A DNA stretch of 64,000 nt from Oscillatoriaceae cyanobacterium Prado104 (GTDB lineage Bacteria > Cyanobacteriota > Cyanobacteriia > Cyanobacteriales > Microcoleaceae), in assembly GCA_025454405.1 (NCBI GenBank), contig JALOON010000042.1, forward strand, positions 25,334 through 89,333, read 5' to 3'. Position 1 is the first letter of the stretch. Each line of letters starts with the position of its first letter. Position numbers and translations under genes: made by a program. The notes below the pieces were generated by a model. The model did no database searches. It worked only from the letters and a program-made list of their open reading frames with translations, and was not told the origin of the DNA. This document shows, in pieces, positions 14,571 to 42,072 of the stretch.

Positions 14571-15872
14571 TTGTTAGCGCGGGACTTGCAAACCCAAGAG
14601 TTAGTAGCGATTAAGTTACTAATTTTTGGGGAGGATGTTTGCTGGGATGACTTAAAGCTATTTGAAAGAGAAGCGCAAACTTTACAACAGCTTTCCCATC
14701 CGGCAATTCCCCGCTACCTGGATTACTTTGAAGTGGATGTGCCAACGGGTAAAGGATTTGCCTTGGTACAAAGCTATATCCAGGCTAAATCCTTAGAAGA
14801 ATGGTTAAAAAGCGGGCGAACATTTAGCGAAGCAGAAGTCAAGCAACTGGCTAAAGCATTACTAGAAATTTTGGACTATCTCCACGGGCAACAGCCGCCA
14901 GTTATTCACCGAGATATCAAGCCGAGTAATATTTTACTGGCAAACAGATCGGGCAATAGTGTCGGTGATGTTTATTTAGTTGATTTTGGTTCCGTACAGA
15001 CACTAGCAGCTAGAAAAGGCAGCACGATTACTGTTGTCGGTACTTACGGATATATGCCGCCCGAACAATTTGGCGGGCGAAATGTTCCCGCTTCCGATAT
15101 TTACAGTTTGGGTGCGACGTTAATTTATTTAGTAACGGGCAGGCATCCAGCCGAGTTATCCCAAGGTAATTTGCAAATTCAATTTGAGTCAACAGTCAAT
15201 CTCAATCCAGATTTAATTGCTTGGCTGAAGTGGATGACACAACCGAGTTTGAACCGCCGCCTTGCATCTGCAAAAGAGGCTATGGAAGCTTTGGAAAATC
15301 CCCGCCTGCCAACAGATATCTCGACGGTCAGACAAAAACCTTTTGGGAGTAAGATTGAAATGAAAAAAGATGGGGAGAATTTAGAGGTTGTAATTCCGCC
15401 CAAAAAGTTGACTTTTCGGAAATTCTACTGGATATTTGTAGGAACGTTTTTTTGCTTTGCGCAATTTTTATTTCCTTTTATCTGGATAAAACCCGTTCTT
15501 AAAGGTGCATTTTTCTTCATTATTCCATTTCTGGTGTTTTTACCACTTTGTTGGATCTTTGGCTTAGTCATTGGTTCTGTATTGTGGGAAAATCTCGTAA
15601 CTTTTTTCAGAGAAACTAGAATTAAGTTCGACGGTCAACAGATTTCTGTAACTCACCTGTGGCCTTGGTATCAATATCAGGTGGCTCCGATCGAGAAAAA
15701 ATCTATGATGCAAGGGAGTATGTATATTCGAGATTCCATGTTAGGTTACGTGTTTGATGAAAAATATTATGAGACTCTGAGAATTTCTCAAGCAACCCCT
15801 CCAGAAATAGAATGGTTGACCGAGGAAATAAGTGCTAGATCTAACGGAAAAATTACTGTGGCTTTTGCATAA
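14571..15872 (+). CDS. Membrane-anchored Ser/Thr protein kinase, copy 2 (tandem paralogue; 5' end uncertain)
   Basis: The ORF table begins at TTG 14571, but protein homology to copy 1 (ERYAIEKQLSQNAGRRTLLARDL) is encoded in the same frame from ~14517. No ATG/GTG/TTG start lies upstream after the in-frame TGA at 14478. This kinase retains an additional C-terminal soluble region that copy 1 lacks. Confidence 0.75.
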   Translation: MLARDLQTQELVAIKLLIFGEDVCWDDLKLFEREAQTLQQLSHPAIPRYLDYFEVDVPTGKGFALVQSYIQAKSLEEWLKSGRTFSEAEVKQLAKALLEILDYLHGQQPPVIHRDIKPSNILLANRSGNSVGDVYLVDFGSVQTLAARKGSTITVVGTYGYMPPEQFGGRNVPASDIYSLGATLIYLVTGRHPAELSQGNLQIQFESTVNLNPDLIAWLKWMTQPSLNRRLASAKEAMEALENPRLPTDISTVRQKPFGSKIEMKKDGENLEVVIPPKKLTFRKFYWIFVGTFFCFAQFLFPFIWIKPVLKGAFFFIIPFLVFLPLCWIFGLVIGSVLWENLVTFFRETRIKFDGQQISVTHLWPWYQYQVAPIEKKSMMQGSMYIRDSMLGYVFDEKYYETLRISQATPPEIEWLTEEISARSNGKITVAFA

Positions 15873-22013: not shown

Positions 22014-22543
22014 GATTTGTAAAGCGAGCGAACCTGGACGCTGCCGCCGGGAAGATTTAAAGTAGAAAGGAACCATCCACTCCGAGGCCTAGCAATGGTT
22101 TTTCAAGCAGAGTCAAGAGCAAAAACCAACTGTTTTTGGCCGGACAATCCGATTTCTGGCAGTATACTGGGATTGAGGAAGTGCGAGAAATTCGATCGAC
22201 CTCAAACATTTGATAGTTGACACTTGACAGTTGAGAGTCGATAGTAGAAGCGTGCGAGCGTCGGGAATTCGCGATGTCGGTCGTTGACTGTGAGGTTTGT
22301 CAACAGTTTATCTAGAACAGTTGACTTCCCAAACGCGAGGTTTTAAGACTCTAAAAGAAACAGTCCGCTGTCCGCTGTTAAGACGGGTTTTAAACCGGGC
22401 TAGCGAAAACTTTCCGGTTGGAGGGGTGGGGGCTAATAACCCTTAATATTTGGTCAAAGTTGTCATCAAAAATATTTTTGAGTTTTGAATTCAAGCAGCG
22501 ATCGCGCCTTTTAGCCAACAAATTTAATCCAAATTCTACAAAT

Positions 22544-25500
22544 ATGATAGCTCTTAACGGATATCAAATTACCGAAAAAGTTTACTCGGGAGCCAATACA
22601 GTTATTTACCGGGGAATCTGGCAAAAACAAAACGTGCCAGTCATCGTCAAAACCCTGAAAAGCGAGTATCCGACGCTCGAACAAATTACGAGATTGAGAC
22701 ACGAATCTAAAATTAGGAGGCAGCCAGAAGAGTTAAAAAATGTTGTCAACTTTTACCGTATTGAAAACTATTTAAATGGCATTGCATTAATCTTAGAAGA
22801 TTTTGGGGGAGTCGATTTAGCGCAGTATTTATCAACTGCCAAACTCAAGCTAAAAGATTTTTTGGCAATTGCCATTCAGCTAGCAAATGGTTTGGCGCAA
22901 ATTCACCAACATCAAATCATCCATAAGGATATTAAACCTCACAATATTATCATCAACCCGGAAACCGAGGAGGTGAAAATTACCGACTTCAGCATCGCCT
23001 CCCGTTTGGGAAGAGAAAGCGCAACTTCCAGCTATCCCAAATTTCTTGAAGGCAGTTTGGCCTATATGTCGCCGGAACAAACAGGTAGAATGAATCGCGT
23101 AATTGACTACCGCAGCGACTTCTATTCTTTGGGAGTGACTTTTTATGAAATGCTGATCGGTAAATTGCCGTTTAGCGCGAGCGATCCTTTAGAATTGGTA
23201 CACTGTCACATCGCTAAAATACCCGAATCTCCCCGCAGTTTAAATCCAGAAATTCCCGAGGTAATTTCTGGGATTGTCATGAAATTGCTGGCCAAAACAG
23301 CAGAAGACAGGTATCAAAGTGCCGAAGGTTTGAGATTTGACTTAGAAACCTGTTTGGCAAAGCTGGAAGCTAGCGAAAGTTTATCGGATTTTACTCCAGG
23401 CAAGGCCGATCGAGCGCGTCAATTAACGATACCTCAAAAACTCTACGGCAGAAACAATGAATTAGCTACTTTGATGAATGCTTTTAACCGCATCAGCGGT
23501 ACGGATTCTGCCTCAAATTCTGCCTCAACTAAGGGACGCTGCGGGGTAGAAATGATTCTGGTTTCTGGTTATTCCGGTATCGGCAAATCCTGCTTGGTAA
23601 ATGAAGTTCAAAAACCGATCGCGCGACAGCGGGGATATTTTATTTCTGGTAAATTCGACCAATTTAAGCGGAATATTCCTTATTATTCTCTGATTCAAGC
23701 ATTTCAATCATTAATTCGGCAACTGCTGACAGAAAGCGAAATTTCGATTTTGAGTTGGAAATACAAATTACTGGCAGCATTGGGTACTAAAGGTAAAGCA
23801 CTTGCCGAAATAATTCCCGAAATCGAACTGATTATCGGCAGGCAGTCTCCAGCCCCAAAACTAGGGGCGATCGAATCGCAAAATCGCTTCAATCAGGTAT
23901 TGAAACAATTTATTAGCGTATTTGCCACAAAAGAACACCCGCTAGTGATTTTTCTCGACGATTTGCAGTGGGGTGATGCAGCTTCGCTCAAATTAATAGA
24001 ACTGCTAATGAGCGACTCGGACAATAAATATTTGCTGCTCATTGGAGCTTATCGAGATAACGAAGTCAGTGCCGCCCACCCGCTGATTCAAACAGTAGAA
24101 AAAATTCAAGCAGCGGGCGCAACTGTCAATAATATTGTTCTCACTCCTTTGCGGTTAAATCATGTCGGTGAATTGATATGCGATACCCTAAATGAGGAAA
24201 ATCCGGTTTCCGAATTGACGGAATTGCTGTTTAACAAAACTCAAGGAAATCCTTTCTTTTTAACTCAGTTGCTAACAACACTTTATCAAGAAGATTTGTT
24301 AGTTTATGACTTGCAGCTTGGGAGTTGGCAGTGGGATATCGAGCGCATACAGGCGATCGGCATTACTGATTGCAATATTGTGGAGTTACTCGCTCGCAAT
24401 ATCAGAAAATTGCCCCCAGCAGTCCAGTCAGCCTTACAATTAGCGGCTTGTATCGGCAGCCAGTTTAATTTAGAAGTGCTGGCAGTTGTCAGTGAAAAAT
24501 CCCTGACGGAAACCGCATTAAACTTGTGGGATGCTCTTCAGGCAGGTTTGATATTGCCCGCGAGCAAAAATTATAAAATTCCGCTGGCTTTTGATGAAGA
24601 ACCAAGCTCTAGCGCCCTGCAAGATGTCAAAGTAGATTACAAATTCTTGCACGACAAAGTGCAGCAAGCAGCTTATTCTTTGATACCGGACGAAGAGAAA
24701 AGAGAAACTCACCTGAAAATCGGTCAATTGTTGCTGAAAAATACTCCCCCAGCAGCTCGAAAAGATTGCATTTTTGCTTTAGTAAACCAACTTAATTTTG
24801 GCATGAGAGCTACAGCAAAACCCATGAATTTCCTGTCGGGGGAATCCGAAAAATACGAGTTAGCTGAACTCAATTTAATTGCAGGTCAAAAAGCTAAAGC
24901 TGCCACGGCCTACGAAGCCGCTCTCAAGTATTTGAAAGTAGGTTTGGGACTGCTGAAATCGGAGTCTAGCTGGCAGAATCATTACCAGCTAACTTTCAAT
25001 CTATTTTTGGAGACAGCGGAAGCAGAATATCTCAATACTAATTTTGAGCGGGCGGAAACTTTAACTAATATTCTCTTGCGCCAAGCTGCCGACAGACTCG
25101 ATCGAGTCAAAGTTTTTGAGCTAAAAATCCAGATTTATGCAGTCCAAAATCAGATGCTCAAGGCCCTTACTACAGGACTGCAAGCTTTGGAGATGATGGG
25201 CATTTCTCGCTTGAAAATTTTAGATTACAACCGCCAGACAATCGCCCTGCCACTGTTGGAAGAAGTGGCAAAATTACCGGAAATGAAATCGCCGGAACAG
25301 CTAGCAATTATGAGGCTGTTGATGTCGATCACTTCCCCGGCTTTGAACGTCAAATCAAAAACTTTGCGCTCGATCGTCGTGACGCAAGTTAACCTCTGCA
25401 TCGAACAAGGTTATTCGGCACTAGCTGCTTTTTCCTATAGCTGGTACGGCACGATTTTGTGCGGGTCGATCGGAGATGTTGAAAAAGGTTATCATGCCGG

Positions 25501-28500
25501 ACAAATCGCTGTGAAGCTGTTGGATCGGTTTGATGCGAGTTTAATTAAATGCCAAGTTTTAAATATGTTTAACGGTTTTATCAAACCGTGGAAAACCCAC
25601 GCGAGAGAAACCCTCGATCCGTTACAGGAAGGGTTTCAAAGTGGCATGGAAGTGGGCGATTTAATTTATGCTGGCTTCAATGCTTTAAACCGCTGCATTT
25701 ATACTTTTCTCGTGGGAGACAAACTAGATTTATTAGATCGAGAGCTAGAAGGATACATCGATCTGTTTCAGAAAAACCGGGTAGTTTTTTTGCTGCCTAT
25801 TTTTGATATCTGGAAGCAAGTAAAAATCAATTTGCAGGGTTTGTCCTTCGATAAATACCGCTTGATGGGCGAACATTTTAATGAAAGCTTTGTGTTGGAA
25901 AAAATGCAGGTAGAGCGTCAAGAAGATTGGACGCTGTTTAACTTTTACTTGGCAAAACAAATCATTTGTTATTTATTTAAAGATGCTGCGGGTGCCGTTG
26001 CTAATGCTTCGCTAGCTCGAGAATGCCTGCAATCTGCCGGCGGATCGATGCTGCTAGCAATACACAATTTTTACCAGTCCCTGGCTTTGCTGGCCGACTG
26101 CGAACAATTAGCGGCAAGCGAACGGGAAAAACGCATCGCTAGAGTGAATATCAATCAAGCAAAAATGCACGAATGGGCCCACAAAGCACCGATGAATTAC
26201 CAGCATAAATACGATTTAGTAGAGGCTGAAAAATGGCGGGTGTTGGGAGAAAAATACCGGGCAATGGATTATTACGATCGCGCGATCGAAAAGGCTGCCC
26301 AACAGGGATACATTCAGGAAGCAGCCCTCGCCAACGAATTAGCTGCGGAGTTTTATCTATCTCAAGGCAAAGAAAAAATTGCTAAATCTTACATGACTGA
26401 TGCTTATTACGGCTATATCCGCTGGGGCGCAAATGCTAAAGTTGCAGATTTAGAAGTCAGATATCCGCAGTCGATCGTCCGCACTCCAGAAGCTGGAAAT
26501 TCCACAAAAAGCGATCGAACTCTTGCCGGAACTTCTGTAACTGCTACCACCCACCAAGGAAGTTTCGATTTTGCTTCGGTGATGAAAGCATCTCTTGCTA
26601 TTTCTGGAGAAATAGTTCTAGATTCTTTGCTAGAAAAATTGATGGTAATTTTGCTAGAAAATGCGGGTGCTGAAAATGGCTGCCTGATCGTCCCAAAAGA
26701 TGGCGAATTTATCGTTGAAGCTGAGGTAAAAGTGGGTACTAGAGTCAAAGTTATGCGCTCTTTGATGTCCCTGGGAGGCGAGGCAATACCCTGTTCCTAC
26801 CCGCAAGCTGCGATCAATTATGTCAATCGAACTTGGGAAGATGTAGTTTTAAATGATGCCAGCAGCGAGGCAATGTTTAATAGCGACCCCTACATCGTTC
26901 AATACCAGCCCAAATCACTGCTGTGCTTGCCGATCGTCTATCAAGGCAAATTAAATGCTATCCTTTATTTGGAAAACAATTTGACAGTTTGTGCTTTCGG
27001 ACCGGAGCATTTGGAAGTTTTGAAAATCCTGTCTTCTCAAGCCGCGATCGCCCTAGAAAATGCTCGGCTTTACGCTAACTTGGAAGCGGCAAACCAAAAA
27101 TTAGAAGAATACAATTCTAATCTGGAAAAGAAAGTAGAAGAACGCACCCAACAATTGCACGAAAAAAATGCCCTGCTGTTTCAAGAAATTAAAGAAAGAC
27201 AAAAAGCTGAAGCCGAAGCTAAAGCAGCAAGTCTGGCTAAAAGTGAATTTTTAGCTAACATGAGTCACGAATTCCGCACCCCCCTCAACGGCATTTTAGG
27301 ATACGCTCAAATCTTCAAGCGAGACAAACAATTGACGCCGCAGCAACAAGATGGAATTCGCGTCATCCAGCGATGTGGCGAACATTTGCTAGAGTTAATC
27401 GGGGATATTTTAGATATTTCTAAAATTGAAGCGAGGAAAATGGAACTGGTAGTCACAGAGTTTGATTTTTCCGAATTCATTCACAGCATCAATGAAATAT
27501 TTCGGATCAAAGCCAATCAAAAAGGCATCGCTTTTAACTGCAAATTCCAGTCCTCTATGCCGCGGGCGATCGCAGCCGATGAAAAGAAACTGCGCCAAAT
27601 TTTGATTAATTTAATTGGCAATGCAGTGAAGTTTACGGAAACTGGTGGAGTTACCTTCAAAATTTTAGCAACCAATTGTCCGACAGGCGGGGACGAGCAT
27701 GAAGCAGCAACACCAAAAGTGAGGATTCGCTTTCAAATTGAAGATACTGGAATTGGCATTGCTGCGGATGAATTGTCAAAAATATTTTCACCTTTTGAAC
27801 AGGTAGGAAACACTCGCAGCCAGACTGAAGGCACGGGATTGGGATTAGCAATTAGCAGACAATTAGTAGAGATTATGGGTGGCGAAGTTAAAGTCAAAAG
27901 CGTTTTGGGAAGAGGCAGCATTTTCTACTTTGAATTGGACTTGAGGGAAGTTAAGAAAGAGGAACACAAAAAGTTTTATGAAAAAACTATTAAAGGTTTC
28001 AGCGGTGCCAAGAAAAAAATTTTAGTAGCTGACGACAAGTGGGAAAATCGATCGGTATTCGTCCAACTGCTCGCACCCTTAGGTTTTGAAATAATTGAGG
28101 CAGCCGACGGTCAAGAATGCGTGGATAAAGCGAGAGAATTTCAACCGGATTGTATCTTAATGGATTTAGTCATGCCGGTGATGGACGGCTTTGAAGCAGT
28201 GCGGCAAATTCGCAAGTTGCCCGAGTTGCAAAATGTCGTGACGATCGGCACTTCTGCCAGCATTTTAGAATCCCAAAAGCAGGTAAGTTTGACCGCAGGA
28301 TGCAATGCTTTCCTCGCTAAGCCGATCCGCGCTGAGGAGCTTTTTGATTGCTTGCAAATCCATTTAGGTTTAGAATGGATTTGTGAAGAATTGCAGGAAG
28401 AAAATGCTGAGCTTGAAAGTTCCGATCTCCAAATTTTCAACAGTTCATCTTCGATCGCGCAGCAAGAAACGATCGCCCCTCCTCCGGAAGAGATAGCCGT

Positions 28501-28672
28501 ACTCTTTGAGCTAGCGATGATGGGAGATCTGGGAGGAATTCAAAAGCAAGCAGAAAAATTGGCAAAAAAGGATGTTAAATATGTTAACTTTGCCAGAAAA
28601 CTGATGCAGCTAGCTAAAGATTTTGACGAACAAAAAATATTAGAATTAGTGGAACAATATAGGAACCAGTAA
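22544..28672 (+). CDS. HstK-type giant signalling protein: Ser/Thr kinase, AAA/NACHT-like P-loop ATPase, helical repeats, GAF, histidine kinase (HisKA+HATPase_c), receiver, plus C-terminal extension
   Basis: Kinase motifs HKDIKPHNIII, DFS and SLAYMSPEQ; Walker A ILVSGYSGIGKSCLVNEV; GAF domain; H-box LANMSHEFRTPLNGI; G-boxes EDTGIGIAADE...GTGLGLAISRQL; receiver domain ILVADD...LMDLVMPVMDG...AKP. The start is set at ATG 22544 (MIALNGYQI). The table ORF starts 42 codons upstream in non-conserved sequence. Confidence 0.85.
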   Translation: MIALNGYQITEKVYSGANTVIYRGIWQKQNVPVIVKTLKSEYPTLEQITRLRHESKIRRQPEELKNVVNFYRIENYLNGIALILEDFGGVDLAQYLSTAKLKLKDFLAIAIQLANGLAQIHQHQIIHKDIKPHNIIINPETEEVKITDFSIASRLGRESATSSYPKFLEGSLAYMSPEQTGRMNRVIDYRSDFYSLGVTFYEMLIGKLPFSASDPLELVHCHIAKIPESPRSLNPEIPEVISGIVMKLLAKTAEDRYQSAEGLRFDLETCLAKLEASESLSDFTPGKADRARQLTIPQKLYGRNNELATLMNAFNRISGTDSASNSASTKGRCGVEMILVSGYSGIGKSCLVNEVQKPIARQRGYFISGKFDQFKRNIPYYSLIQAFQSLIRQLLTESEISILSWKYKLLAALGTKGKALAEIIPEIELIIGRQSPAPKLGAIESQNRFNQVLKQFISVFATKEHPLVIFLDDLQWGDAASLKLIELLMSDSDNKYLLLIGAYRDNEVSAAHPLIQTVEKIQAAGATVNNIVLTPLRLNHVGELICDTLNEENPVSELTELLFNKTQGNPFFLTQLLTTLYQEDLLVYDLQLGSWQWDIERIQAIGITDCNIVELLARNIRKLPPAVQSALQLAACIGSQFNLEVLAVVSEKSLTETALNLWDALQAGLILPASKNYKIPLAFDEEPSSSALQDVKVDYKFLHDKVQQAAYSLIPDEEKRETHLKIGQLLLKNTPPAARKDCIFALVNQLNFGMRATAKPMNFLSGESEKYELAELNLIAGQKAKAATAYEAALKYLKVGLGLLKSESSWQNHYQLTFNLFLETAEAEYLNTNFERAETLTNILLRQAADRLDRVKVFELKIQIYAVQNQMLKALTTGLQALEMMGISRLKILDYNRQTIALPLLEEVAKLPEMKSPEQLAIMRLLMSITSPALNVKSKTLRSIVVTQVNLCIEQGYSALAAFSYSWYGTILCGSIGDVEKGYHAGQIAVKLLDRFDASLIKCQVLNMFNGFIKPWKTHARETLDPLQEGFQSGMEVGDLIYAGFNALNRCIYTFLVGDKLDLLDRELEGYIDLFQKNRVVFLLPIFDIWKQVKINLQGLSFDKYRLMGEHFNESFVLEKMQVERQEDWTLFNFYLAKQIICYLFKDAAGAVANASLARECLQSAGGSMLLAIHNFYQSLALLADCEQLAASEREKRIARVNINQAKMHEWAHKAPMNYQHKYDLVEAEKWRVLGEKYRAMDYYDRAIEKAAQQGYIQEAALANELAAEFYLSQGKEKIAKSYMTDAYYGYIRWGANAKVADLEVRYPQSIVRTPEAGNSTKSDRTLAGTSVTATTHQGSFDFASVMKASLAISGEIVLDSLLEKLMVILLENAGAENGCLIVPKDGEFIVEAEVKVGTRVKVMRSLMSLGGEAIPCSYPQAAINYVNRTWEDVVLNDASSEAMFNSDPYIVQYQPKSLLCLPIVYQGKLNAILYLENNLTVCAFGPEHLEVLKILSSQAAIALENARLYANLEAANQKLEEYNSNLEKKVEERTQQLHEKNALLFQEIKERQKAEAEAKAASLAKSEFLANMSHEFRTPLNGILGYAQIFKRDKQLTPQQQDGIRVIQRCGEHLLELIGDILDISKIEARKMELVVTEFDFSEFIHSINEIFRIKANQKGIAFNCKFQSSMPRAIAADEKKLRQILINLIGNAVKFTETGGVTFKILATNCPTGGDEHEAATPKVRIRFQIEDTGIGIAADELSKIFSPFEQVGNTRSQTEGTGLGLAISRQLVEIMGGEVKVKSVLGRGSIFYFELDLREVKKEEHKKFYEKTIKGFSGAKKKILVADDKWENRSVFVQLLAPLGFEIIEAADGQECVDKAREFQPDCILMDLVMPVMDGFEAVRQIRKLPELQNVVTIGTSASILESQKQVSLTAGCNAFLAKPIRAEELFDCLQIHLGLEWICEELQEENAELESSDLQIFNSSSSIAQQETIAPPPEEIAVLFELAMMGDLGGIQKQAEKLAKKDVKYVNFARKLMQLAKDFDEQKILELVEQYRNQ

Positions 28673-28675
28673 ACA

Positions 28676-30109
28676 ATGAGCACTTTACTCTTAGAACAGG
28701 GCGTGATATTAATCGTTGACGACAACCCAAACAACTTAGCATTTTTGTTTGACTTTTTGACTGAATTGGGTTTCAAAGTATTGGTGGCGCGCACGGGAGA
28801 AAGTGCTCTGAAAAAAGTAGAATATTCACCGCCTGATTTGATTTTATTGGATGTAATCATGCCGGAAGTTGACGGCTTTGAAACTTGCAGGCGCTTGAAA
28901 GCAAATCCAGCGGCAAAAGAGATTCCGGTAATTTTTATGACGGCGCTCAACAGTACGGAAGATAAGGTGAAAGCATTTAGTGTCGGTGCAGTTGATTACG
29001 TCACTAAGCCGATTCAAAATGAAGAAGTTTTAGCTCGCGTCAAAGCACATTTGAGTATCAGCCGGCTGACTAGAAAACTTCAGGAACAAAACATTCAAAT
29101 GCAGCAGGAAATTACCGATCGAAAACAAGCTCAAGCTAACCTGCGGCAGTTGGCAGAACAGTTAGAAAAACGAGTAGCAGAGCGAACTGCAGAACTTTCC
29201 CAAACGAACGATCGGCTGCAAGCGCAGGTTAAAGAGCGACAGCAAATGCAGGAGAGTTTGTATCAATCTTTGCAGGAACTCCAGCAAACTCAAATCCTGC
29301 TCGTTCAAAATGAAAAAATGTCGGCTTTGGGGCGGATGCTGGTAGGTATCGCTCGCGAAATTAACGATCCGGTCAATTTCCTTTACGGCAATCTCGCTCG
29401 GGTGCGAGATTCCACCCAAAGCATCCTCAATCTACTGGATCTTTACCAGCAAAGTTATCCTCAGCCAGCACCAGCGATCGAGCTGCAACAGATTGCTGAA
29501 GATTTGCGAAAAGTTTTGGAATCGATGCAAGCAGGAGGCGATCGAATTCGAGATCTCGTTCGTTCCCTGCGCTTTTTTTCGCGGCAAGAAGGGGAGGAAA
29601 TGAAGCCGATCGACATTCACGAATGTCTCGACAACACTCTGATGATTTTGCAAGCTCGACTCAAACCCCAACTGCACCGATCGGCGATTGAAGTAATTAA
29701 AAATTACTATCCAAATTTGCCAAGCGTAGAGTGCTACAGCGGAGAAATCAGTCAAGTATTTATGAATATTTTAACTAACGCGATCGATGCGATTGAACAA
29801 TCCAGCAGCTTGACAAATGACGGAACAATTGCAGCAGAGAGCGATCGAATTCGGATCGTTACTGAACTCAGCAACTGCAACAGTATAATTATTAGAATTG
29901 CTGACACTGGGGCGGGGATTGCAGAGGAAGTGCGAGATCTGATATTTGACCCCTTTGTGACTGCCAAACCAGCGGGCAAAGGTACGGGAATCGGGCTATC
30001 AATTAGTTGGTATATTATAGTAGAAAAACACGGCGGTAGCTTGCAGTGCATTTCCACATCAACTGAGGGGACTGAATTTGCGATCGAACTGCCAATTTCG
30101 CAGCAATAA
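28676..30109 (+). CDS. Hybrid receiver / histidine-kinase-like protein with Arg in place of the phospho-acceptor His (IAREINDP)
   Basis: Canonical receiver domain (ILIVDDNPN...LILLDVIMPEVDG...TKP), a coiled coil, and a HisKA-like region in which codon 227 is CGC (Arg) where the paralogue at 6306 has CAC (His, AHEINNP). The HATPase_c region is intact (IADTGAGI...GKGTGIGLSIS). The gene starts 4 nt after the stop of the HstK gene. Confidence 0.8.
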   Translation: MSTLLLEQGVILIVDDNPNNLAFLFDFLTELGFKVLVARTGESALKKVEYSPPDLILLDVIMPEVDGFETCRRLKANPAAKEIPVIFMTALNSTEDKVKAFSVGAVDYVTKPIQNEEVLARVKAHLSISRLTRKLQEQNIQMQQEITDRKQAQANLRQLAEQLEKRVAERTAELSQTNDRLQAQVKERQQMQESLYQSLQELQQTQILLVQNEKMSALGRMLVGIAREINDPVNFLYGNLARVRDSTQSILNLLDLYQQSYPQPAPAIELQQIAEDLRKVLESMQAGGDRIRDLVRSLRFFSRQEGEEMKPIDIHECLDNTLMILQARLKPQLHRSAIEVIKNYYPNLPSVECYSGEISQVFMNILTNAIDAIEQSSSLTNDGTIAAESDRIRIVTELSNCNSIIIRIADTGAGIAEEVRDLIFDPFVTAKPAGKGTGIGLSISWYIIVEKHGGSLQCISTSTEGTEFAIELPISQQ

Positions 30110-30182: not shown

Positions 30183-30336
30183 AGTTTTGAGTTGTGAATT
30201 AAGAACTGTCTTTAACTCAAAACTCAAAACTCCTTACGAACTATCTTTAACTCAAAACTCAAAACTCAAAACTCAAAACTCCCGCAAACTGTCTTTAACT
30301 CAAAACTCAAAACTCAAAACTCAAAACTCAAAACTC
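30183..30336. repeat. Composite STRR-like repeat block (aactgtctttaactcaaaactcaaaactc units)
   Basis: Tandem units of the family GAGTTTTGAGTTTTGAGTTAAAGACAGTT, here in reverse-complement orientation. The inverted partner block is at 32007-32272. Confidence 0.85.
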
Positions 30337-30756
30337 CTGAGAATCGTCTCGTTCTTGATAATCTTCAGCCGACATCGGGTCTAATTCCCAGCGACTTTCA
30401 TCTCGATTTTCTAGCATATCTGCTGCGTGCAACATCTCCCCTTCATCCATTTCTATCCCAGCAGCAGCCCCGAGTTCGTCAACAATATCTTGGTCTGGAG
30501 TAGGCGTGCTGCCGCCTACATCTTCCTCACCGCTGGCACTTACTTTTTCACCTGCAGAACCGACATTGCCGCCGTTGAGATTGAGAGTGGTTAAGCTGTC
30601 TTCTAAATTGCTGTCATCCAAATCTGCATCTTTTTCACTAAGTTCCGTTTTGTCGATAACTCCGGTGCCGTAGGATTCGGTAATTACTTGAGGCAATTCA
30701 GAGGAATCATTGCTTTCTTCTGTTGCTTTTGATGCTGTTTTTTTGCGCTGTGCCAC
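30328..30756 (-). CDS. Acidic hypothetical protein (Asp/Glu-rich, low complexity)
   Basis: A 142-aa ORF. Its last two codons are supplied by the heptamer repeat. No domain recognised. Confidence 0.4.
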   Translation of the reverse strand: MAQRKKTASKATEESNDSSELPQVITESYGTGVIDKTELSEKDADLDDSNLEDSLTTLNLNGGNVGSAGEKVSASGEEDVGGSTPTPDQDIVDELGAAAGIEMDEGEMLHAADMLENRDESRWELDPMSAEDYQERDDSQEF

Positions 30757-31589: not shown

Positions 31590-32006
31590 ATGAACGATAT
31601 TCTGCGGCGCTTAAAACGTTTACCCTGGCGCGAAATGCTGCAAATTTCCGCCCTCTGCAACTTGATAATTATGGGAATTGAACTCTTTTTAGCGTGGGCT
31701 GCTATTCAATTTCCTGCTGTGGGCAACGCTTTGGGGCTACTTTTCCGCTCTCCCTTGCACGTATTTATACCTTGCCTGATAGCGATGGGAATGGGGGCTC
31801 TAGCCGTTTATTTTTTCGAGTTTTGGCAGCAGCAATTTTTGCTAAATCGAGGCAGTTTGTGGACTTTAATTTTTTGTTTGTTATTGGGTCTGTTTTTCAA
31901 GTCGTTGCTGTTACCTGCATTTTTAATAAGTTTATCGGAAACTTCACTTATTGGAGTGGCGATCGGTGTTTTTTGGAAAGGTAGACCTTATTGGCGAAGT
32001 TGGTAA
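31590..32006 (+). CDS. Hypothetical integral membrane protein (4 predicted TM helices)
   Basis: A 138-aa ORF that is hydrophobic throughout and ends at a heptamer repeat block. Confidence 0.45.
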   Translation: MNDILRRLKRLPWREMLQISALCNLIIMGIELFLAWAAIQFPAVGNALGLLFRSPLHVFIPCLIAMGMGALAVYFFEFWQQQFLLNRGSLWTLIFCLLLGLFFKSLLLPAFLISLSETSLIGVAIGVFWKGRPYWRSW

Positions 32007-32272
32007 GGAGTTTTGAGTTTTGAGTTTTGAGTTTTGAGTTAAAGACAGTTCTCAGGAGTTTTGAGTTTTGAGTTTTGAGTTTTGAGTTAAAGACAGCTTG
32101 CGGGAGTTTTGAGTTTTGAGTTAAAGACAGTTTGCGGAGTTTTGAGTTTTGAGTTAAAGACAGTTCCCAGGAGTTTTGAATTTTGAGTTTTGAGTTAAAG
32201 ACAGTTCTTAATTCAAAACTCAAAACTTATCTTAATTCAAAACTCAAAACTCAAAACTCAGAACTTCTCCTC
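32007..32272. repeat. Composite STRR-like repeat block (ggagttttgagttttgagttaaagacagtt units), inverted relative to 30183-30336
   Basis: About six copies of a ~45-nt unit. ORF 31948..32223 is an artefact of this repeat. Confidence 0.85.
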
Positions 32273-33789: not shown

Positions 33790-33799
33790 TGCTTAAAAG

Positions 33800-33832
33800 G
33801 AAGAGTTGACAGTTGACAGTTGACAGTTGACA
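33800..33832. repeat. TTGACAG heptamer tandem repeat (STRR2-like)
   Basis: gttgacagttgacagttgacagttgaca. The same family occurs at 3189-3218, 39536-39572, 49055-49130 and 58300-58340. Confidence 0.8.
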
Positions 33833-34107
33833 ATCGAAAATCTTCCGATCGAAAATCTAAAATCGTTTGATAGTGAATCAGGAAGCTTTCGGGCTATGGG
33901 AATCTGGCATTTATTCGCTGGGCTTACTTAGCTCTCGCTCGTTTTTTAATCATCGCACAATTAATTAACTTAAGCCAATATGCGATTAATTGGCTAAAAA
34001 GTTAGACAGTTTTTTTGACGGCGATATCTGTTATATTAAAACATTAAGGTGAGTTTTTCCCAGCATTGAGATTAAAGTAAAATACACAAATCGAACTTGT
34101 TGTCAAT

Positions 34108-36327
34108 ATGCAGTTAATTAATTATTTGACTTCTGTTTTCGGCGTAATTTGGCAGAATAGTGTTTTTCACTGGGTGGCGCTAATTTTGCTGGGCGTTGCT
34201 GTTTGGGGCGAGTATGCTGCAGTGAAGCAGTATCAGGATTATGTTAAAGCAAAAAGCCGATCGACTGCTGAGGCGATCGGTTATTTAAGTTCTAAGTTAG
34301 AAAGCGGTACGATCGGGGCGATGGAACTGCGACAGTGGGAAACTCCAGCAGATACTTGGACGCTGCTTTTAGATTGGTTTAGCGAACATTTGGCAGGAGA
34401 AACAATTGCAGGCGGCGATGCTTACAAAACTCAGGTTAGATCCGGGCGGTTCGTGTTGTTTCAATATCCGGCTATATTAACTCGATCGGCCCCTCGGAGT
34501 CAGTGGCGGTTCGTACCCAGCATTTTAGTAGCGCTGGGGGTTTTAGGTACATTTTACGGCATTCAAACCGGGTTGCAAAATGTTAGTTTGGGCGGGCTGC
34601 AAGATACTAAAGAATTGCTGCCATCGATCGACACTTTACTGGAAGGAATGAAAACAGCTTTTTCAACTTCCTTGATGGGTTTGGGTGCGTCTAGCGTATT
34701 TACAATTGTTTTAGCTTGGGGCGATCGCGCGCGCGTTGCATACCAATCCAACTTGCGCGCCAAATTCGATCGAATCGCCAAATTGCAAACACCAGAACAA
34801 CTGCTTGCGGTTGCCAATTCCAGCAGCGATATAGTCGGCGCGATTGCCCTTGCTACCGAAACAATGCAAGCAGGATTCCTGCAAGTTATCGAGGCTCAAA
34901 GTAATGTTAACTCGCAGGCGATCGGGCAGCAAATCGGTGTAGCAATGACGCCAGTTTTTCAAGAAATCCGCCAGGAATTATCGACACTCCAACAGATTAA
35001 AGCAGACCAAGGAGAAGAGATATTAAACAACTTGCTTTCAGGCCTGTGCGTCCAAGTAATCGAACCCGTAGTTGCGCGGTTGGATAGCAGCGCCCAACTC
35101 ACTCACGAAGCATCCGAAGCTGTCAGAGAATTAAAGAACGAATTGGGCGGAATTTCTGCAAGTTTAGCGCAATCTATCCTGACAATTCAAACATTCCAAC
35201 AAGATACATTAGTACAGTTGCAAGAATTTGCCAACAACTTGCAGCAAATTTTAAAACAGTTTCAAACCGACACCCACGACGTATTGCAAGAAATGGCAAC
35301 CGAAATTCGATCGGGCGTTGGCGAAAGTATTGAAGGCATGAAAGCCCAAAGAACAGCCTTCCAAGAAAGCGCCCAAGAAGCAGCCAATACTTTTAGAGGA
35401 ATTCAGGACAACTTGCAAGCATCACTCCACACTCAAGCAGAACAAGAAAAGGCAATGCTAGAAGGTGTGGAAGCCAGAATGACCAACATTTTAAATGCGA
35501 CTCACTCTGCTTTTCAAACGCAGTCAGATACGATTAAAGCAGTAGGCGATGAAGCTTCGGGATTGATGGATAAAGCGCGAGAAAATTTGGTTGGTAGCTT
35601 GCAGAATGTTGACGGAATGCTGCAAAAAACTCGCGTTACGGTGCAACAAGAACTAGATAAATTCCGGGTGACATATCAAGCGTCACTCCAGCAGTTTTTT
35701 ACCGAACAAAACAACTTGCTGGAAGGAACGTTAGGCAAACAGCAAAAAGGTTTAGCGCAGGTAGTTCTGGGTTTGCAAAAAGTATTTCAAGAAGAATCCG
35801 AGAAGCGCAAATTGATGTCGCAGCAAGTTGACGAAAGCATGGAGAAAATTTTGACAACAGCGGCAGAAGTGAGTCAGTTTGCCAACTCTGTGGGGTTGAA
35901 TTCCAGCCAGCGGTTGGCGCAATTGCAGGAACTAGCTAAATTAACGGGACAGGAAGTATTGCGGGTAGAAAGCGTTTACGAAAAAATGGCGAATCAATTC
36001 AATACAGAGGGGGAAAGATTGCAAACTACTTATACCAACTTGGTGACTCAATTAAATGCAGCTTTGCAAGCGGAACAAGAACAAGTGAGGCGGGTTGAGA
36101 GTGCGTATCAAAACATGACAAATCAGTTCGATCGGGCTTTGGAATTGGGGAATGAGAGATTGATTGGCTATTTGGAAAGAACTACTTCATCGCAGCACAA
36201 GTTTTTTGAAGAAGCCGATAATTCGATGGCGAAAGTGTGCAGCGGGTTGCAAGAAAGTTCCGACGGTTTGATGCAGGTTGCGCATTATTTGGTGGCGGCT
36301 GCAGATAATTTGGGGACGAAGAAATGA
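34108..36327 (+). CDS. MotA/TolQ/ExbB-family proton-channel protein with ~500-aa C-terminal coiled-coil tail (ZorA-like architecture)
   Basis: Three TM helices with the MotA/ExbB signature in the last two (ILVALGVLGTFYGIQTGL ... LLEGMKTAFSTSLMGLGASSVFTIVLAW). These are followed by ~520 residues of Gln/Glu/Leu-rich heptad-type sequence lacking Pro or Gly breaks. Confidence 0.7.
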   Translation: MQLINYLTSVFGVIWQNSVFHWVALILLGVAVWGEYAAVKQYQDYVKAKSRSTAEAIGYLSSKLESGTIGAMELRQWETPADTWTLLLDWFSEHLAGETIAGGDAYKTQVRSGRFVLFQYPAILTRSAPRSQWRFVPSILVALGVLGTFYGIQTGLQNVSLGGLQDTKELLPSIDTLLEGMKTAFSTSLMGLGASSVFTIVLAWGDRARVAYQSNLRAKFDRIAKLQTPEQLLAVANSSSDIVGAIALATETMQAGFLQVIEAQSNVNSQAIGQQIGVAMTPVFQEIRQELSTLQQIKADQGEEILNNLLSGLCVQVIEPVVARLDSSAQLTHEASEAVRELKNELGGISASLAQSILTIQTFQQDTLVQLQEFANNLQQILKQFQTDTHDVLQEMATEIRSGVGESIEGMKAQRTAFQESAQEAANTFRGIQDNLQASLHTQAEQEKAMLEGVEARMTNILNATHSAFQTQSDTIKAVGDEASGLMDKARENLVGSLQNVDGMLQKTRVTVQQELDKFRVTYQASLQQFFTEQNNLLEGTLGKQQKGLAQVVLGLQKVFQEESEKRKLMSQQVDESMEKILTTAAEVSQFANSVGLNSSQRLAQLQELAKLTGQEVLRVESVYEKMANQFNTEGERLQTTYTNLVTQLNAALQAEQEQVRRVESAYQNMTNQFDRALELGNERLIGYLERTTSSQHKFFEEADNSMAKVCSGLQESSDGLMQVAHYLVAAADNLGTKK

Positions 36328-37250
36328 TATATCAGTTGACAGTTATCGCGAAATCAGAAATCAGAAGTAAGTTAGCCTTATTGTTCGGTAATGACTGTAC
36401 ACTTATATCTAAGAAACCTGGTTTTTATCGGACTTTAAGGTGGGATGCAATGTTTAACATAAAAACCCGGTTTCTGCCTCAATTAAAGACAATTCGATCG
36501 CATATAAAAATGAGAGATTTATCAGATTTAGACAATTCACCGGAAATTGAAGAAGAGGAAGACTCCAGCGTCTTGCTGTCGATCGGCGATTTAATGTCGG
36601 GTTTGCTGATGTTATTCGCCCTCCTGTTTATCACAGTCCAAATTCAACTCAGCGAAAAGGTTAAACTGCTGGATCAAAAAATCCTTCAGGTGGAAAAACT
36701 GCGACAGGAATTGCAGCAATATCAAAAAGCCTTTGAAGCGCTGCCCGAGATTATTGTCAATACTTTGGAGGGGAAAATTGGAGGCAAAGATATCTTTACT
36801 GTCGATCCAATAACGGGAGATGTCAGCATTCGCGATCGCATCCTATTTGATAATAATAGTTCCGTCTTGAAACCGGAAGGTAAAAAGTTTTTGCAAGCCT
36901 TCATTCCGCTATACAGCCAAGTAATTTTTGCCAACAAAGAGTTGGAAGATCAAATTGCCCGCGTCGTTGTCGAAGGACATACCAGTTCCGCAGGTTCCGA
37001 ACAAAGAAATTTAGAACTGAGTTTGCGCAGGGCATTAGCTGTTTCTAATTATATGTTTTCTAAGGAGGTGAATTTTCCTCAAAAAGCTAAGTTGCAGCAG
37101 AAAGTATTAGTTTCGGGGCGGGGAGAATTAGATGGCGATCGAACTCGCGATGTAGCGGTCGATCGAAAAGTGGTTTTCCGCTTTCAATTCCGCCGCGAAA
37201 ACTTGAATGCGAACGTAGATTTAAATCGCCCGTTGCCATCAAAAAATTGA
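36324..37250 (+). CDS. MotB-like protein: TM helix with conserved Asp plus C-terminal OmpA-family peptidoglycan-binding domain (ZorB-like)
   Basis: ATGA start/stop overlap with the upstream gene. The TM segment SVLLSIGDLMSGLLMLFALLFI matches the MotB (S/Y)ADLMT plug/TM motif and includes the Asp. The OmpA_C core is ILFDNNSSVLKPEGKKFL...VVVEGHTSSAGSEQRNLELSLRRALAVSNYM. An internal ATG at 36450 or 36510 may be the true start. Confidence 0.7.
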   Translation: MIYQLTVIAKSEIRSKLALLFGNDCTLISKKPGFYRTLRWDAMFNIKTRFLPQLKTIRSHIKMRDLSDLDNSPEIEEEEDSSVLLSIGDLMSGLLMLFALLFITVQIQLSEKVKLLDQKILQVEKLRQELQQYQKAFEALPEIIVNTLEGKIGGKDIFTVDPITGDVSIRDRILFDNNSSVLKPEGKKFLQAFIPLYSQVIFANKELEDQIARVVVEGHTSSAGSEQRNLELSLRRALAVSNYMFSKEVNFPQKAKLQQKVLVSGRGELDGDRTRDVAVDRKVVFRFQFRRENLNANVDLNRPLPSKN

Positions 37251-37339: not shown

Positions 37340-37600
37340 TTAACAGCGAGAGATCGATCCCCCCTAACCCCCCTTAAGAAGGGGGGGACCGGAAGTATTT
37401 AAAGTCTCCCTTTTTTAGAGTAGACTCGAAGTATTCAAAGTCCCGTTTTTTCAAGGGAAACTCGAAGTATTCAAAGTCCTCGTTTTTCAAGGGAAACTTG
37501 AAGTATTCAAAGTCCCCCCTTTTTAATGGTGGACTCGAAGTATTCAAAGTCCCCCTTTTTAAGGGGGATTTAGGGGGGTCGAGACTCGGGCAAAAATGAG
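37340..37600. repeat. C5/G5 palindromic repeat plus a ~40-bp tandem array (5 copies of actcgaagtattcaaagtccc..tttttcaagggaa)
   Basis: Direct reading of the sequence. The repeat lies between the MotB-like gene and potB. Confidence 0.8.
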
Positions 37601-39699: not shown

Positions 39700-40761
39700 A
39701 TGAAACGCCTGTTGACCTTCCTACTTTTGTTTGCGATTAGCGCCATACTGCCTCTCGGCTGTAGCAGCAACACCAGCAACCAACAACAAGTTCTCAGCAT
39801 TTACAATTATGCCACTTACATCGCCCCAGAAGCGATCGCCCAATTCGAGAAAGAAAACAACGTTAAAATTCAATACGACAACTTCGAGAACAGCGAGGCA
39901 CTTTATGCCAAACTCAAACAGGGAAATCCGGGTTACGATTTAATCTTTCCCGCCGACTACATGGTAAAAATCATGGCGACAGAAAATATAATTGAACCCT
40001 TGAATCTCAACAACATTCCTAACCAAAAAAACCTCGAACCTAAATTCCTCAATCAATCTTTTGACCCCGGCAATAAATATTCCCTGCCCTACCAATGGGG
40101 AACGATGGGAATTGGCTACAACTTGAAAGCAACCAAAGACGAAATCAACAGTTTGACGGCGATGTTCGATCCGAAATATACAGGAAAAATCGCGTGGCAA
40201 GACGACAGCAGATACACCTTTGCCGCCGCTTTAATGTATTTAGGATTCGACCCCAATACAACCAACCCCGAAGAAATTAACAAAGCCCGAGATTTGCTAG
40301 TTAAAAACAAAAGCATCATCGCAGCTTTTGTTCCCGATACCGGTCAAGACTTGCTCGATCGAGGAGAAGTCAATTTGACATTAGAATGGAGTGGCGATAT
40401 CTTTCAAGTAATGAAAGAAAATCCTAATATCCGCTATGCTATTCCCAAAGAAGGAACCATCATCTTTACCGACAACATGGCGATTCCCAAAGGTGCGCCG
40501 AATAAAGAATTAGCTGAGAAATTTATTAACTTCATTTTGCAGCCAGAAATAGGCGCAAAAATATCCAACTTTATCCACTTCGGATCGCCCAACAAAGCAG
40601 CAATTGACCGAGGCTTAATCGACCCCAAAGACTTTAAAAACCCTCAAATTTACCCGCCTGCTGAAGTATTCGCTAAAATGAAATTCTTGCAAGATGTCGG
40701 GCAAGCTACTACACTGTACGATCGAGCCTGGACAGAAGTCAAAGCAGCAGCCGGAAAATAG
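39700..40761 (+). CDS. potD: Spermidine/putrescine-binding periplasmic lipoprotein (PotD-like)
   Basis: The start is taken at MKRLLTFLLLFAISAILPLGCSS, which has an LPLGC lipobox. The PotD-like core is YDLIFPADYM ... WQWGTMGIGYN. Confidence 0.8.
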   Translation: MKRLLTFLLLFAISAILPLGCSSNTSNQQQVLSIYNYATYIAPEAIAQFEKENNVKIQYDNFENSEALYAKLKQGNPGYDLIFPADYMVKIMATENIIEPLNLNNIPNQKNLEPKFLNQSFDPGNKYSLPYQWGTMGIGYNLKATKDEINSLTAMFDPKYTGKIAWQDDSRYTFAAALMYLGFDPNTTNPEEINKARDLLVKNKSIIAAFVPDTGQDLLDRGEVNLTLEWSGDIFQVMKENPNIRYAIPKEGTIIFTDNMAIPKGAPNKELAEKFINFILQPEIGAKISNFIHFGSPNKAAIDRGLIDPKDFKNPQIYPPAEVFAKMKFLQDVGQATTLYDRAWTEVKAAAGK

Positions 40762-40770
40762 TTGACAATT

Positions 40771-40968
40771 GGTAAGGAGTTTTGAGTTTTGAATTTTGAG
40801 TTTTGAGTTAAAGACAGTTCTGAAGTTCACAACTCAAAACTTAAAACTCAGAATTTCCCTTCTTCCTTCTTCCTTCTTCCCTGTTCCCTGTTCTCTGTTC
40901 CCTGTTCTCTGTTCCCTGTTCCCTATTCCTTCTTCCTTCTTCCTTCTTCCTTCTTCCTTCTTCCTTCA
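40771..40968. repeat. Composite repeat: heptamer STRR block, TTCCTTC heptamers and TTCCCTG/TTCTCTG heptamers
   Basis: Direct reading of the sequence. ORF 40796..41038 is an artefact. Confidence 0.85.
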
Positions 40969-40971
40969 AAA

Positions 40972-42072
40972 ATGCACTCGATCGAACTCACCAACTTTTC
41001 CAAAATATATCAAACTAACCGCGGCCAAGATTTCCTAGCTGTAGATAACCTCAACCTGCAAATTTACGATCGAGAATTCTTTTCTTTACTCGGCCCTTCC
41101 GGCTGCGGCAAAACCACAACCTTGCGAACGATTGCAGGTTTTGAAAACCCCACAGCCGGCGAAATTTACATTCACGGGCAACCCATGCACAACCGCCCGC
41201 CATTTCACCGCCCGGTAAATACAGTATTTCAAAACTATGCTTTATTTCCCCACATGACCGTAGCACAAAACGTCGCATTTGGGTTAGAAATGGAGAATTT
41301 ACCTGCTCAAAAAATTCGCGATCGCGCTGCAGAAGTTTTAGCATTAGTACAGTTAACAGATTTAGCAAAACGCTATCCCCGCCAACTCTCGGGAGGGCAG
41401 CAACAGCGGGTAGCGCTGGCGAGGGCTTTAGTCAAACAACCGTCGGTTTTGCTGTTAGATGAACCTTTAGGCGCGCTAGATTTTAAATTGCGCAAAGAGA
41501 TGCAATTAGAATTAAAAAAAATGCAGCGCAAGCTGGGAATTACCTTTATTTACGTCACGCACGATCGCGAAGAAGCCCTCACGATGTCCGACAGAATTGC
41601 AGTGATGGATCGGGGACAATTGCAGCAAGTTGGCAGCCCGATCGAGATGTACGAACATCCTAAAAATCGGTTTGTAGCAGAATTTATTGGCGACAGCAAT
41701 TTTTTGACCGGGCGAGTTGCCGAAAAGCAAAATAGTAATATAATAGTAGTAGTTGACGAACAATTGCCCGTGTTAGTTGCAACAGCAGAAGATGTACCGA
41801 TCGGTCAAATTGTTACTCTCGTCTTGCGACCGGAAAAAGCCGCAATTTATCCGGGCGATTCAGCAGTTGAAAATAGCTGGCCCGCAACGATCGAAGAAGC
41901 AGTTTATACCGGCACCGATACCCGCTATACAGTGCGGTTGACTGCCAAAAGCTCGATCGCAATTCGCAGGCAAAACTTGCACCGAGATAACTTGCAGCAA
42001 CACCAAACAGGCGATAACGTGCGCGTCGCCGTTCCGCCGGAAAGCCTGTCGATTTTAGATTTTAGATTTTAG
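40972..42072 (+). CDS. potA: Spermidine/putrescine import ATP-binding protein (PotA-like ABC ATPase)
   Basis: Walker A GPSGCGKTT, the ABC signature LSGGQQQRVALARAL, Walker B LLLDEPLGALD, and a C-terminal TOBE-like domain. Confidence 0.85.
   Translation: MHSIELTNFSKIYQTNRGQDFLAVDNLNLQIYDREFFSLLGPSGCGKTTTLRTIAGFENPTAGEIYIHGQPMHNRPPFHRPVNTVFQNYALFPHMTVAQNVAFGLEMENLPAQKIRDRAAEVLALVQLTDLAKRYPRQLSGGQQQRVALARALVKQPSVLLLDEPLGALDFKLRKEMQLELKKMQRKLGITFIYVTHDREEALTMSDRIAVMDRGQLQQVGSPIEMYEHPKNRFVAEFIGDSNFLTGRVAEKQNSNIIVVVDEQLPVLVATAEDVPIGQIVTLVLRPEKAAIYPGDSAVENSWPATIEEAVYTGTDTRYTVRLTAKSSIAIRRQNLHRDNLQQHQTGDNVRVAVPPESLSILDFRF

Follow-up and report, generated by a model that had tools for sequence, protein, structure and literature searches.

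The window examined here, a 64-kb stretch of cyanobacterial DNA, carries on its forward strand the gene pair zorA and zorB, both of which are intact, belong to the Zorya family and have the features that define the ZorAB motor. The locus is best read as the membrane half of a type-I-like cyanobacterial Zorya, the zorC gene of which would be provided in trans by a separate conserved locus adjoining cysH; the probability of this reading is put at about 0.6. The evidence comprises the profile and structural matches of the two proteins, the arrangement of zor genes across cyanobacteria, and the presence, in genomes of the Microcoleus/Tychonema clade to which the window belongs, of an intact zorC that is under selection and has co-diverged with zorA.

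The zorA and zorB genes and their products

The features of the locus are the following (positions in the window):

34108–36327, + strand: zorA, 739 aa; motor domain ~1–225, all-helical cytoplasmic tail ~229–739
34783–36324, + strand: ZorA tail, residues ~226–739, similar in length to the tail of Escherichia coli ZorA (EcZorA; residues 223–729)
36328–36509: zorA–zorB spacer, 182 nt, non-coding; readable as an open reading frame (ORF) from the ATG at 36324
36412–36428 and 36459–36475: 17-nt inverted repeat in the spacer
36510–37250, + strand: zorB, 246 aa; transmembrane (TM) helix, Asp27, 25-residue insertion and OmpA-type domain
36588–36590, + strand: codon of the channel residue Asp27 of ZorB
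~36843–37151, + strand: OmpA-type peptidoglycan-binding domain of ZorB

The 739-aa product with a MotA/ExbB-type motor, described in the original prediction from which this analysis started, is confirmed by the ORF at 34108–36327, which matches the PADLOC model ZorA1 (PDLC00597) with 899 bits (E = 6.6e-271) over residues 14–657; 16 further ZorA models match the same ORF, all more weakly, while the Pfam MotA_ExbB score of 15.7 bits lies under the 22.9 cut-off and the NCBIfam ZorA models match only under their own cut-offs. The AlphaFold2 (AF2) model of ZorA, a monomer built on a 12-sequence alignment, has a predicted local distance difference test (pLDDT) score of 80–90 in the motor (residues 1–225). 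In a Foldseek search of the PDB with this model the six best matches are ZorA chains, from E. coli (8qyd, 8qyh, 8qyk, 8qyy) and Shewanella (8vvn), with E values from 7e-7 to 5.5e-5, and the structures of TolQ, ExbB and MotA start at E = 0.03.

The long tail that had been predicted is likewise present; it comprises ~510 residues, is all helix in the AF2 model and contains no enzymatic domain that would contradict the prediction. In particular, residues 229–737 form helix with four short breaks (helices 229–238, 240–263, 270–385, 390–475, 483–594 and 601–737; low pLDDT, as expected for a monomer), proline is absent beyond residue 320, and the composition is dominated by Q (12.6%), L (11.3%), A (10.1%) and E (9.4%). 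The hydrophobic residues recur with a period of 3.6 residues (power 4.2 vs 1.46 for the 99th percentile of shuffled sequences); on this analysis the tail is consistent with the right-handed pentameric bundle that has been suggested for the EcZorA tail, which spans residues 223–729 and ~70 nm (PMC11946911). In the E. coli Zorya the tip of the tail is needed for the recruitment of the effectors (PMC11946911). ZorA ORFs of the clade are mostly full length, with the exceptions of L017, which reaches a contig end, and L027 (639 aa); L numbers denote the individual loci of the comparative set described below.

ZorB matches PADLOC ZorB1 (PDLC00609) with 241 bits (E = 3.3e-72) and the Pfam OmpA model with 53.4 bits against a cut-off of 27.2, together with a weak MotB_plug match (12 bits, under cut-off); its best PDB sequence match is E. 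coli ZorB (EcZorB, 8qyd_F; E = 2.2e-7). The protein has one N-terminal TM helix, at residues 19–49 of 246, and the Asp of its SIGDLMSG motif aligns with the proton-carrying D26 of EcZorB, so that the MotB-like TM Asp and the OmpA domain of the original prediction are both recovered. Directly past the TM helix, at residues ~33–59 (36606–36686), stands a 25-residue coiled-coil-like insertion (KVKLLDQKILQVEKLRQELQQYQKAFE), which is found in the Microcoleus and Microseira/Lyngbya clades, other cyanobacterial ZorB proteins being devoid of it.

The ATGA overlap between the two genes, which had been taken for a sign of translational coupling, is instead an artefact of ORF calling. The longest open frame of zorB runs from 36324 to 37250 on the + strand and encodes 308 aa; all the aligned ZorB homologues (14/14) begin at a Met matching M63 of this frame, and the 62-codon extension covers a spacer without similarity to its counterparts in 13 related strains. 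The true zorB therefore extends from 36510 to 37250 and begins after a 182-nt spacer. Across 14 loci of the clade the spacer measures 149–1508 nt and the sequences are mutually non-homologous; 4-nt zorA/zorB overlaps do exist in more distant relatives, such as L029, and do not occur in the Microcoleus/Tychonema clade. The beginning of the false ZorB extension (cagttgacagtt...) resembles the spurious ORFs translated from repeats of the window.

In sister Microcoleus strains the spacer harbours an inserted gene, encoding either a PD-(D/E)xK protein or an IS200-like Y1/RAYT transposase (Pfam Y1_Tnp), and both zor genes are intact. The PD-(D/E)xK gene lies on the opposite strand, matches PADLOC PD_DExK with 176 bits and is present in 6 of 14 clade loci. 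Examples of spacer inserts are L003:12260-12862(-), L006:12584-13270(-) and L010:12971-13570(+), further ones being found in L005, L012, L014, L015, L017, L025, L027 and L079. The spacers of the window and of Tychonema hold only short, unrelated sequence and no inserted gene.

Zorya loci in cyanobacteria and the unlinked zorC

The search for ZorA homologues returned 264 proteins, all cyanobacterial, and 80 loci from GTDB species representatives were compared with 10-kb flanks, in which ORFs were called and the neighbouring proteins clustered. Two protein clusters recur beside zorAB: a protein of 480–520 aa, directly 3' of zorB in 43 loci, and a protein of 115 aa, named c3, present in 41 loci. 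The larger one is ZorC, on the basis of matches to PADLOC ZorC1 (PDLC00618; 414–624 bits) and Pfam EH_Signature (59–119 bits); its membership rests on these two models, and UniRef names the ZorC of relatives as Zorya ZorC. The c3 gene is mostly directly 5' of zorA, and directly 3' of zorC in Anabaena, Dolichospermum and Sphaerospermopsis. The arrangements, counted only for loci with enough flank, are the following:

Other cyanobacteria: c3 and zorABC, 32 loci
Other cyanobacteria: zorAB, zorC not adjacent, 9 loci, ~6 with a truncated ZorA ORF
Sister clade (Microseira, Lyngbya, Limnoraphis, Capilliphycus; 66–69% ZorA identity): zorABC, no c3, 9 loci
Window's clade (Microcoleus/Tychonema; 86–92% ZorA identity): zorAB only, 13 loci
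Window's clade: zorA only, no zorB (L002), 1 locus

Outside the window's clade, zorC thus follows zorB directly in 41 loci, 32 with c3 and 9 without it. Within the clade, zorAB is always flanked by the same flavin adenine dinucleotide (FAD) oxidoreductase and by potBCDA, which answers the question of neighbourhood conservation raised by the original prediction.

No effector gene was found beside the pair, as had been claimed. The PADLOC scan of 20 window ORFs, including every ORF of at least 700 aa, gave no match to ZorC, ZorD, ZorE, ZorF or ZorG; no significant tblastn hit to any of 46 ZorC and 41 c3 queries turned up anywhere in the 64 kb, and the c3 hidden Markov model (HMM), run on all stop-to-stop ORFs of at least 30 aa, matched none in the window and, over all loci, only the c3 genes already known. 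Remnants of zorC or c3 were also absent when these queries, with a few from c58, were run by tblastn against the window and 20 clade loci, the best hit (E = 0.007) being at an unrelated position. Across the 80 loci no large conserved neighbour occurs, no ZorD or ZorE nuclease partner was found within the 10-kb flanks, and none of nine large ORFs in the vicinity of zorABC in other cyanobacteria matches ZorD. From the lack of such a neighbour and of ZorD matches it follows that the cyanobacterial family consists of ZorABC, with c3 in most lineages, without an adjacent ZorD.

The c3 protein is a candidate fourth component of the cyanobacterial Zorya lineage. Its profile retrieves 353 homologues, those listed being all cyanobacterial hypothetical proteins, and among the 120 matches listed none is named Microcoleus or Tychonema; no match was found in Pfam, PADLOC, NCBIfam or the PDB sequences. 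The AF2 model (pLDDT 92) has a helical hairpin and a three-stranded sheet, and its best Foldseek match, at E = 0.33, indicates no informative fold. Examples of c3 are L029:9649-9987, L040:9622-9969 and L057:9615-9941, with 38 more loci. Two variants of the other components were also noticed: at L068:12556-14012 zorA and zorC enclose a tandem pair of ZorB paralogues, and in a 768-aa ENA metagenome protein (P0171) a ZorC homologue is joined to WD40/beta-propeller repeats.

The missing zorC of the window's clade is found elsewhere. A Microseira ZorC query retrieves EH-signature proteins of 480–495 aa and 47–50% identity from Microcoleus and Tychonema-like genomes, and the genes encoding them lie in a constant context formed by a GT4 glycosyltransferase (reverse strand), zorC, cysH and a class II aldolase. 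An intact zorC stands at this second locus in at least 13 clade genomes; the pair is consequently an orphan locally, as had been claimed, and not at the genome level. In two cases zorAB and zorC belong to the same assembly (Microcoleus LEGE 07076, JADEWV010000082 for zorAB and JADEWV010000142 for zorC; CAN_BIN18, JAJAYT010000449 and JAJAYT010000254, respectively), and the remaining pairs were matched through the name of the strain or the prefix of the locus tags (A006_D1, ARI1-B5, Prado104, CSU_2_1, SM1_3_4, RU_3_3, SU_5_6, PH2017_10, PH2017_22, PH2017_29, EAZ94 and EAZ25). Within 8 kb of the stand-alone zorC there is no MotA- or OmpA-like gene and no second ZorA or ZorB, and the synteny comparison did not find the neighbours of this locus beside zorABC in the sister clade. 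A small ORF upstream of the stand-alone zorC was considered as c3 and discarded, since the c3 HMM gives no match in L081–L086 and the small ORFs vary in size and position from strain to strain; they are probably miscalls. The adjoining cysH was also considered as a defence-type phosphoadenosine phosphosulfate reductase and rejected, scoring as an ordinary housekeeping CysH above the NCBIfam cut-offs.

The divergence of the two unlinked genes is closely correlated. In 33 linked systems the pairwise identities of ZorA and ZorC correlate with r = 0.94, and two split Microcoleus pairs, with r = 0.94 and 0.91, agree with this relation, their mean residual being -0.5 standard deviations (sd); ten same-genome pairs within the clade give r = 0.95, a value reached in 0 of 5000 Mantel permutations. 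The nearest relatives of the split ZorA and of the unlinked ZorC are identical, namely the Microseira/Lyngbya clade. This demonstrates that the two halves descend from a single ancestral zorABC and were inherited vertically together.

All three genes are kept by purifying selection. The ratio of non-synonymous to synonymous substitution rates (dN/dS; pairwise Nei–Gojobori NG86 estimates within the clade, dS ~0.3–0.45) is 0.107 for the whole ZorA protein over 20 clade orthologues, 0.20 for its N-terminal 130 residues and 0.067, the lowest value in the protein, for the tail portion 481–739; ZorB gives 0.142 and the unlinked ZorC 0.22–0.26. The neighbouring genes used as controls give 0.077 (FAD oxidoreductase), 0.10 (potB/C), 0.10 (potD) and 0.15 (potA), a span of 0.077–0.152 for the flanking housekeeping genes.

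Interpretation of the proposed split system

The closest known system is the type I Zorya (ZorABCD), described in E. coli NCTC9026 and Shewanella ANA-3 (PDB 8qyd, 8vvn; PMC11946911, PMC11890865). The resemblance lies in a ZorA of nearly equal length (739 vs 729 aa), the MotA-like motor of which continues into ~500 residues of helical tail, in a ZorB that combines a TM Asp with peptidoglycan binding by an OmpA-like domain, and in the EH-signature partner ZorC of the cyanobacterial family, all three proteins falling under PADLOC type I models. In contrast to type I, the identity to the solved proteins is only ~16–21%, ZorD, the Snf2-like helicase/nuclease of type I, is found neither in the window nor within 10 kb of the 80 cyanobacterial loci, and in Microcoleus/Tychonema zorC is non-adjacent, at an unlinked locus, and the distance from zorA to zorB varies between 149 and 1508 nt in place of tight coupling; moreover, the cyanobacterial ZorC fails to reach E. 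coli ZorC, neither single-sequence nor profile searches having found a link. Type II (ZorABE) and type III (ZorABFG) share the ZorAB core, with weaker matches to PADLOC ZorA2, ZorA3, ZorB2 and ZorB3; however, the window has no match to ZorE, the HNH nuclease of type II, nor to ZorF or ZorG among the 20 ORFs scanned, and the type I models are the best by a very large margin.

Among cyanobacteria, the c3-zorA-zorB-zorC loci of Nostoc, Calothrix, Anabaena, Aphanothece and others (L029–L078; 31–48% ZorA identity) match the same PADLOC models (PDLC00597, 00609, 00618) and likewise have no ZorD, but differ from the window's clade in being contiguous operons, often with zorA and zorB overlapping or nearly abutting, and in including the conserved 115-aa c3. 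The closest relatives are the zorABC loci of the sister clade (L016–L028), with 66–69% identity in ZorA and 47–53% in ZorC; they too have no c3 and bear the 25-residue insertion after the TM helix of ZorB, whereas their zorC is directly 3' of zorB in 9/9 loci and their genomic context differs from that of both Microcoleus loci.

By homology with E. coli ZorAB (PMC11946911), the two proteins of the window would assemble in the inner membrane as a ZorA5B2 proton-driven motor. Once phage entry disturbs the envelope, the OmpA-like domains of ZorB would grip the peptidoglycan, protons would flow via Asp27 of ZorB, and ZorA would rotate together with its helical tail of ~70 nm, passing the signal to soluble cytoplasmic partners (PMC11946911). 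On the comparative genomic evidence, the receiver would be ZorC, an EH-signature DNA-binding protein supplied from the cysH-adjoining locus. Of the three explanations put forward in the original prediction, a partner encoded elsewhere is thus favoured, while a minimal variant is not, because zorC persists elsewhere in the clade in an intact, selected and co-diverged form.

Several points weigh against a Zorya completed in trans. The 64 kb covered of the window's own genome showed no zorC. The E. coli Zorya depends on every one of its components, with ZorD as the nuclease (PMC11946911); no ZorD was found here. Both loci lie amid housekeeping genes and not in a defence island, and the family seems to be transmitted vertically and restricted to cyanobacteria, a pattern uncommon among defence systems. 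Any two vertically transmitted genes can be expected to be inherited and to diverge together, and such behaviour is no proof of physical or functional coupling. In addition, the unlinked ZorC stands ~2 sd beyond the linked trend in its distance from its nearest relatives (0.51 vs ~0.60), and its conserved IFDFG motif is changed to IFQFE or IFQLD; the extra divergence and the altered motif therefore suggest a possible drift towards another role. The conserved E and H motif residues of ZorC are kept. The literature yielded no experimental test of any cyanobacterial Zorya and nothing relevant on orphan, split or cyanobacterial Zorya systems.

As an alternative, which appears unlikely, ZorAB, with or without the distant ZorC, would have been co-opted for a core function other than defence, for instance the sensing of envelope or peptidoglycan damage or the coupling of proton-motive force to a process in the cytoplasm; it would then descend from Zorya without acting against phages. 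Such a role would agree with the exclusively cyanobacterial origin of the listed ZorA, ZorC and c3 homologues, with flanks that are constant within genera (potBCDA, cysH and the aldolase in Microcoleus), with dN/dS values like those of housekeeping genes, and with the absence of a ZorD or ZorE nuclease near any of the 80 loci. On the other hand, all members of the ZorAB family characterised so far act against phages, and ZorC, the EH-signature partner, has been kept; the site between the two motor genes readily takes up mobile genes, and 9 loci outside the clade have no adjacent zorC, ~6 of them with a truncated ZorA, a patchiness typical of accessory defence genes. Less credible still is signalling from ZorAB to another effector, encoded elsewhere or varying between strains, with the distant zorC unrelated. 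The PD-(D/E)xK nuclease of the spacer, which 6 of the 14 clade loci have between the two zor genes and which, as the same protein cluster, occurs two genes upstream of c3-zorA in Calothrix (L056), is a conceivable example, and the known Zorya subtypes do differ in their soluble effectors; nevertheless, the window, Tychonema (L007, L013) and the RAYT strains lack this gene and their zorAB is under selection, and ZorC co-diverges with ZorA. Since the same site also accommodates the IS200-like Y1/RAYT transposase and is empty in the window, it has the appearance of a hot-spot for insertions rather than of a functional module.

That the pair is the non-functional, decaying remnant of a zorABC operon deprived of zorC would account for the absence of zorC and c3 from the locus, for the zorA–zorB junction broken by insertions in many strains, for L002 without zorB and the shortened ZorA of L027, and for the frequent coincidence of zorC loss and truncated ZorA ORFs elsewhere in cyanobacteria. 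This explanation is very improbable: selection on the intact zorAB is as strong as on the neighbouring housekeeping genes at dS ~0.3–0.4, so the pair is not a decaying remnant, and most clade orthologues are full length, their key residues are kept and zorC is intact elsewhere in the same genomes. Virtually no credit can be given to a misreading of an ordinary ExbB/ExbD, TolQ/TolR or flagellar MotA/MotB stator, to which only the weak MotA_ExbB and MotB_plug matches point, both under cut-off. The overwhelming PADLOC ZorA1 and ZorB1 scores and the Foldseek ranking, in which the E values of TolQ, ExbB and MotA are four orders of magnitude poorer than those of ZorA structures, refute such an identity; the 510-residue tail is foreign to those families, and no TonB, TolA or flagellar gene, the last as already claimed, is present among the 20 ORFs scanned. 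The assignment to ZorA/ZorB made in the original prediction is in this way upheld by profile and structure alike.

Beyond the membrane half with its zorC in trans, a broader proposal can be made, tentatively and as a possibility: cyanobacteria may possess a Zorya subtype of their own, composed of ZorABC and c3 without ZorD and in large part vertically inherited, which in Microcoleus/Tychonema would have been split and have lost c3 while still functioning. The proteins themselves are already known, being covered by the PADLOC type I models of ZorA, ZorB and ZorC and, for the ZorC of relatives, by the UniRef naming, and the earlier statement that any explanation of the pair would be new was therefore too strong. 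No description was found of the ZorABC architecture without ZorD, of c3, or of the division into two conserved unlinked loci in Microcoleus/Tychonema. PADLOC, DefenseFinder and most of the thinking on Zorya assume that motor and effectors are encoded side by side; the clade offers a natural case in which zorAB and zorC have long been apart (dS ~0.3–0.4), both under selection, and in which a trans-acting Zorya would be directly testable. If the proposed reading is true, ZorAB is able to pass its signal to a partner supplied in trans, a type-I-like Zorya can be independent of ZorD, with a different effector mechanism or a non-defence output, and detection tools based on co-location systematically miss split systems. 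Since the cyanobacterial family has no ZorD, it also bears on the action of ZorC on its own and on how the signal of the tail becomes protection. In annotation, 'hypothetical protein' is the label that the zor genes bear at present in the majority of the listed genomes.

Context of the locus and other features of the window

The neighbours of the pair are those named in the original prediction: upstream of zorA, on the opposite strand, is an FAD amine-oxidase-type, carotenoid-desaturase-like oxidoreductase, and downstream of zorB are the potB/C/D/A-like ABC transporter genes. The region upstream of zorA includes the following features, and the promoter-like matches, to the consensus only, number 9 vs 5.4 expected:

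33790–34107, + strand: divergent intergenic region upstream of zorA, without a c3-like gene
33804–33863: TTGACAG direct repeat, containing sigma-70-like hexamers

Short tandem or dispersed repeats are present at 33804–33831 (TTGACAG heptamers), 30187–30384, 31948–32223 and 40615–41038, and some repeats of the window, other than TTGACAG, translate into spurious ORFs. Between zorB and potB, at 37392–37565, a 36-nt tandem repeat (4.8 copies, 82% matches) is flanked by 32-nt inverted repeats (37354–37385 and 37551–37582); its unit is unique in the window, and a CRISPR-like nature was rejected because there are no spacers.

Elsewhere in the window, tandem Ser/Thr-kinase-like genes at 13375–14547 (+) and 14571–15872 (+) match PADLOC PD-T4-6 and mad6 with 183–189 bits, which is probably generic kinase similarity and not a defence system. 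A 2084-aa protein (22418–28672, +) combines Ser/Thr kinase, AAA_16, GAF, HisKA, HATPase and receiver domains, and its PD-T4-6 matches were set aside as concerning only the generic kinase domain; a protein with receiver and HATPase domains (28676–30109, +) follows directly. The gene at 62322–63830 (+) encodes an MscS-type mechanosensitive channel that carries a fused cyclic-nucleotide-binding domain; the PADLOC PycTIR/Effector matches concern this domain alone and do not point to a Pycsar system. Finally, the gene at 58269–60995 (+) encodes a 908-aa protein with the full Major Vault Protein (MVP) domain set (Vault repeats 219 bits, MVP_shoulder 177 bits, Vault_2, Vault_3 and Vault_4), a bacterial homologue of the protein that forms the shell of eukaryotic vaults.

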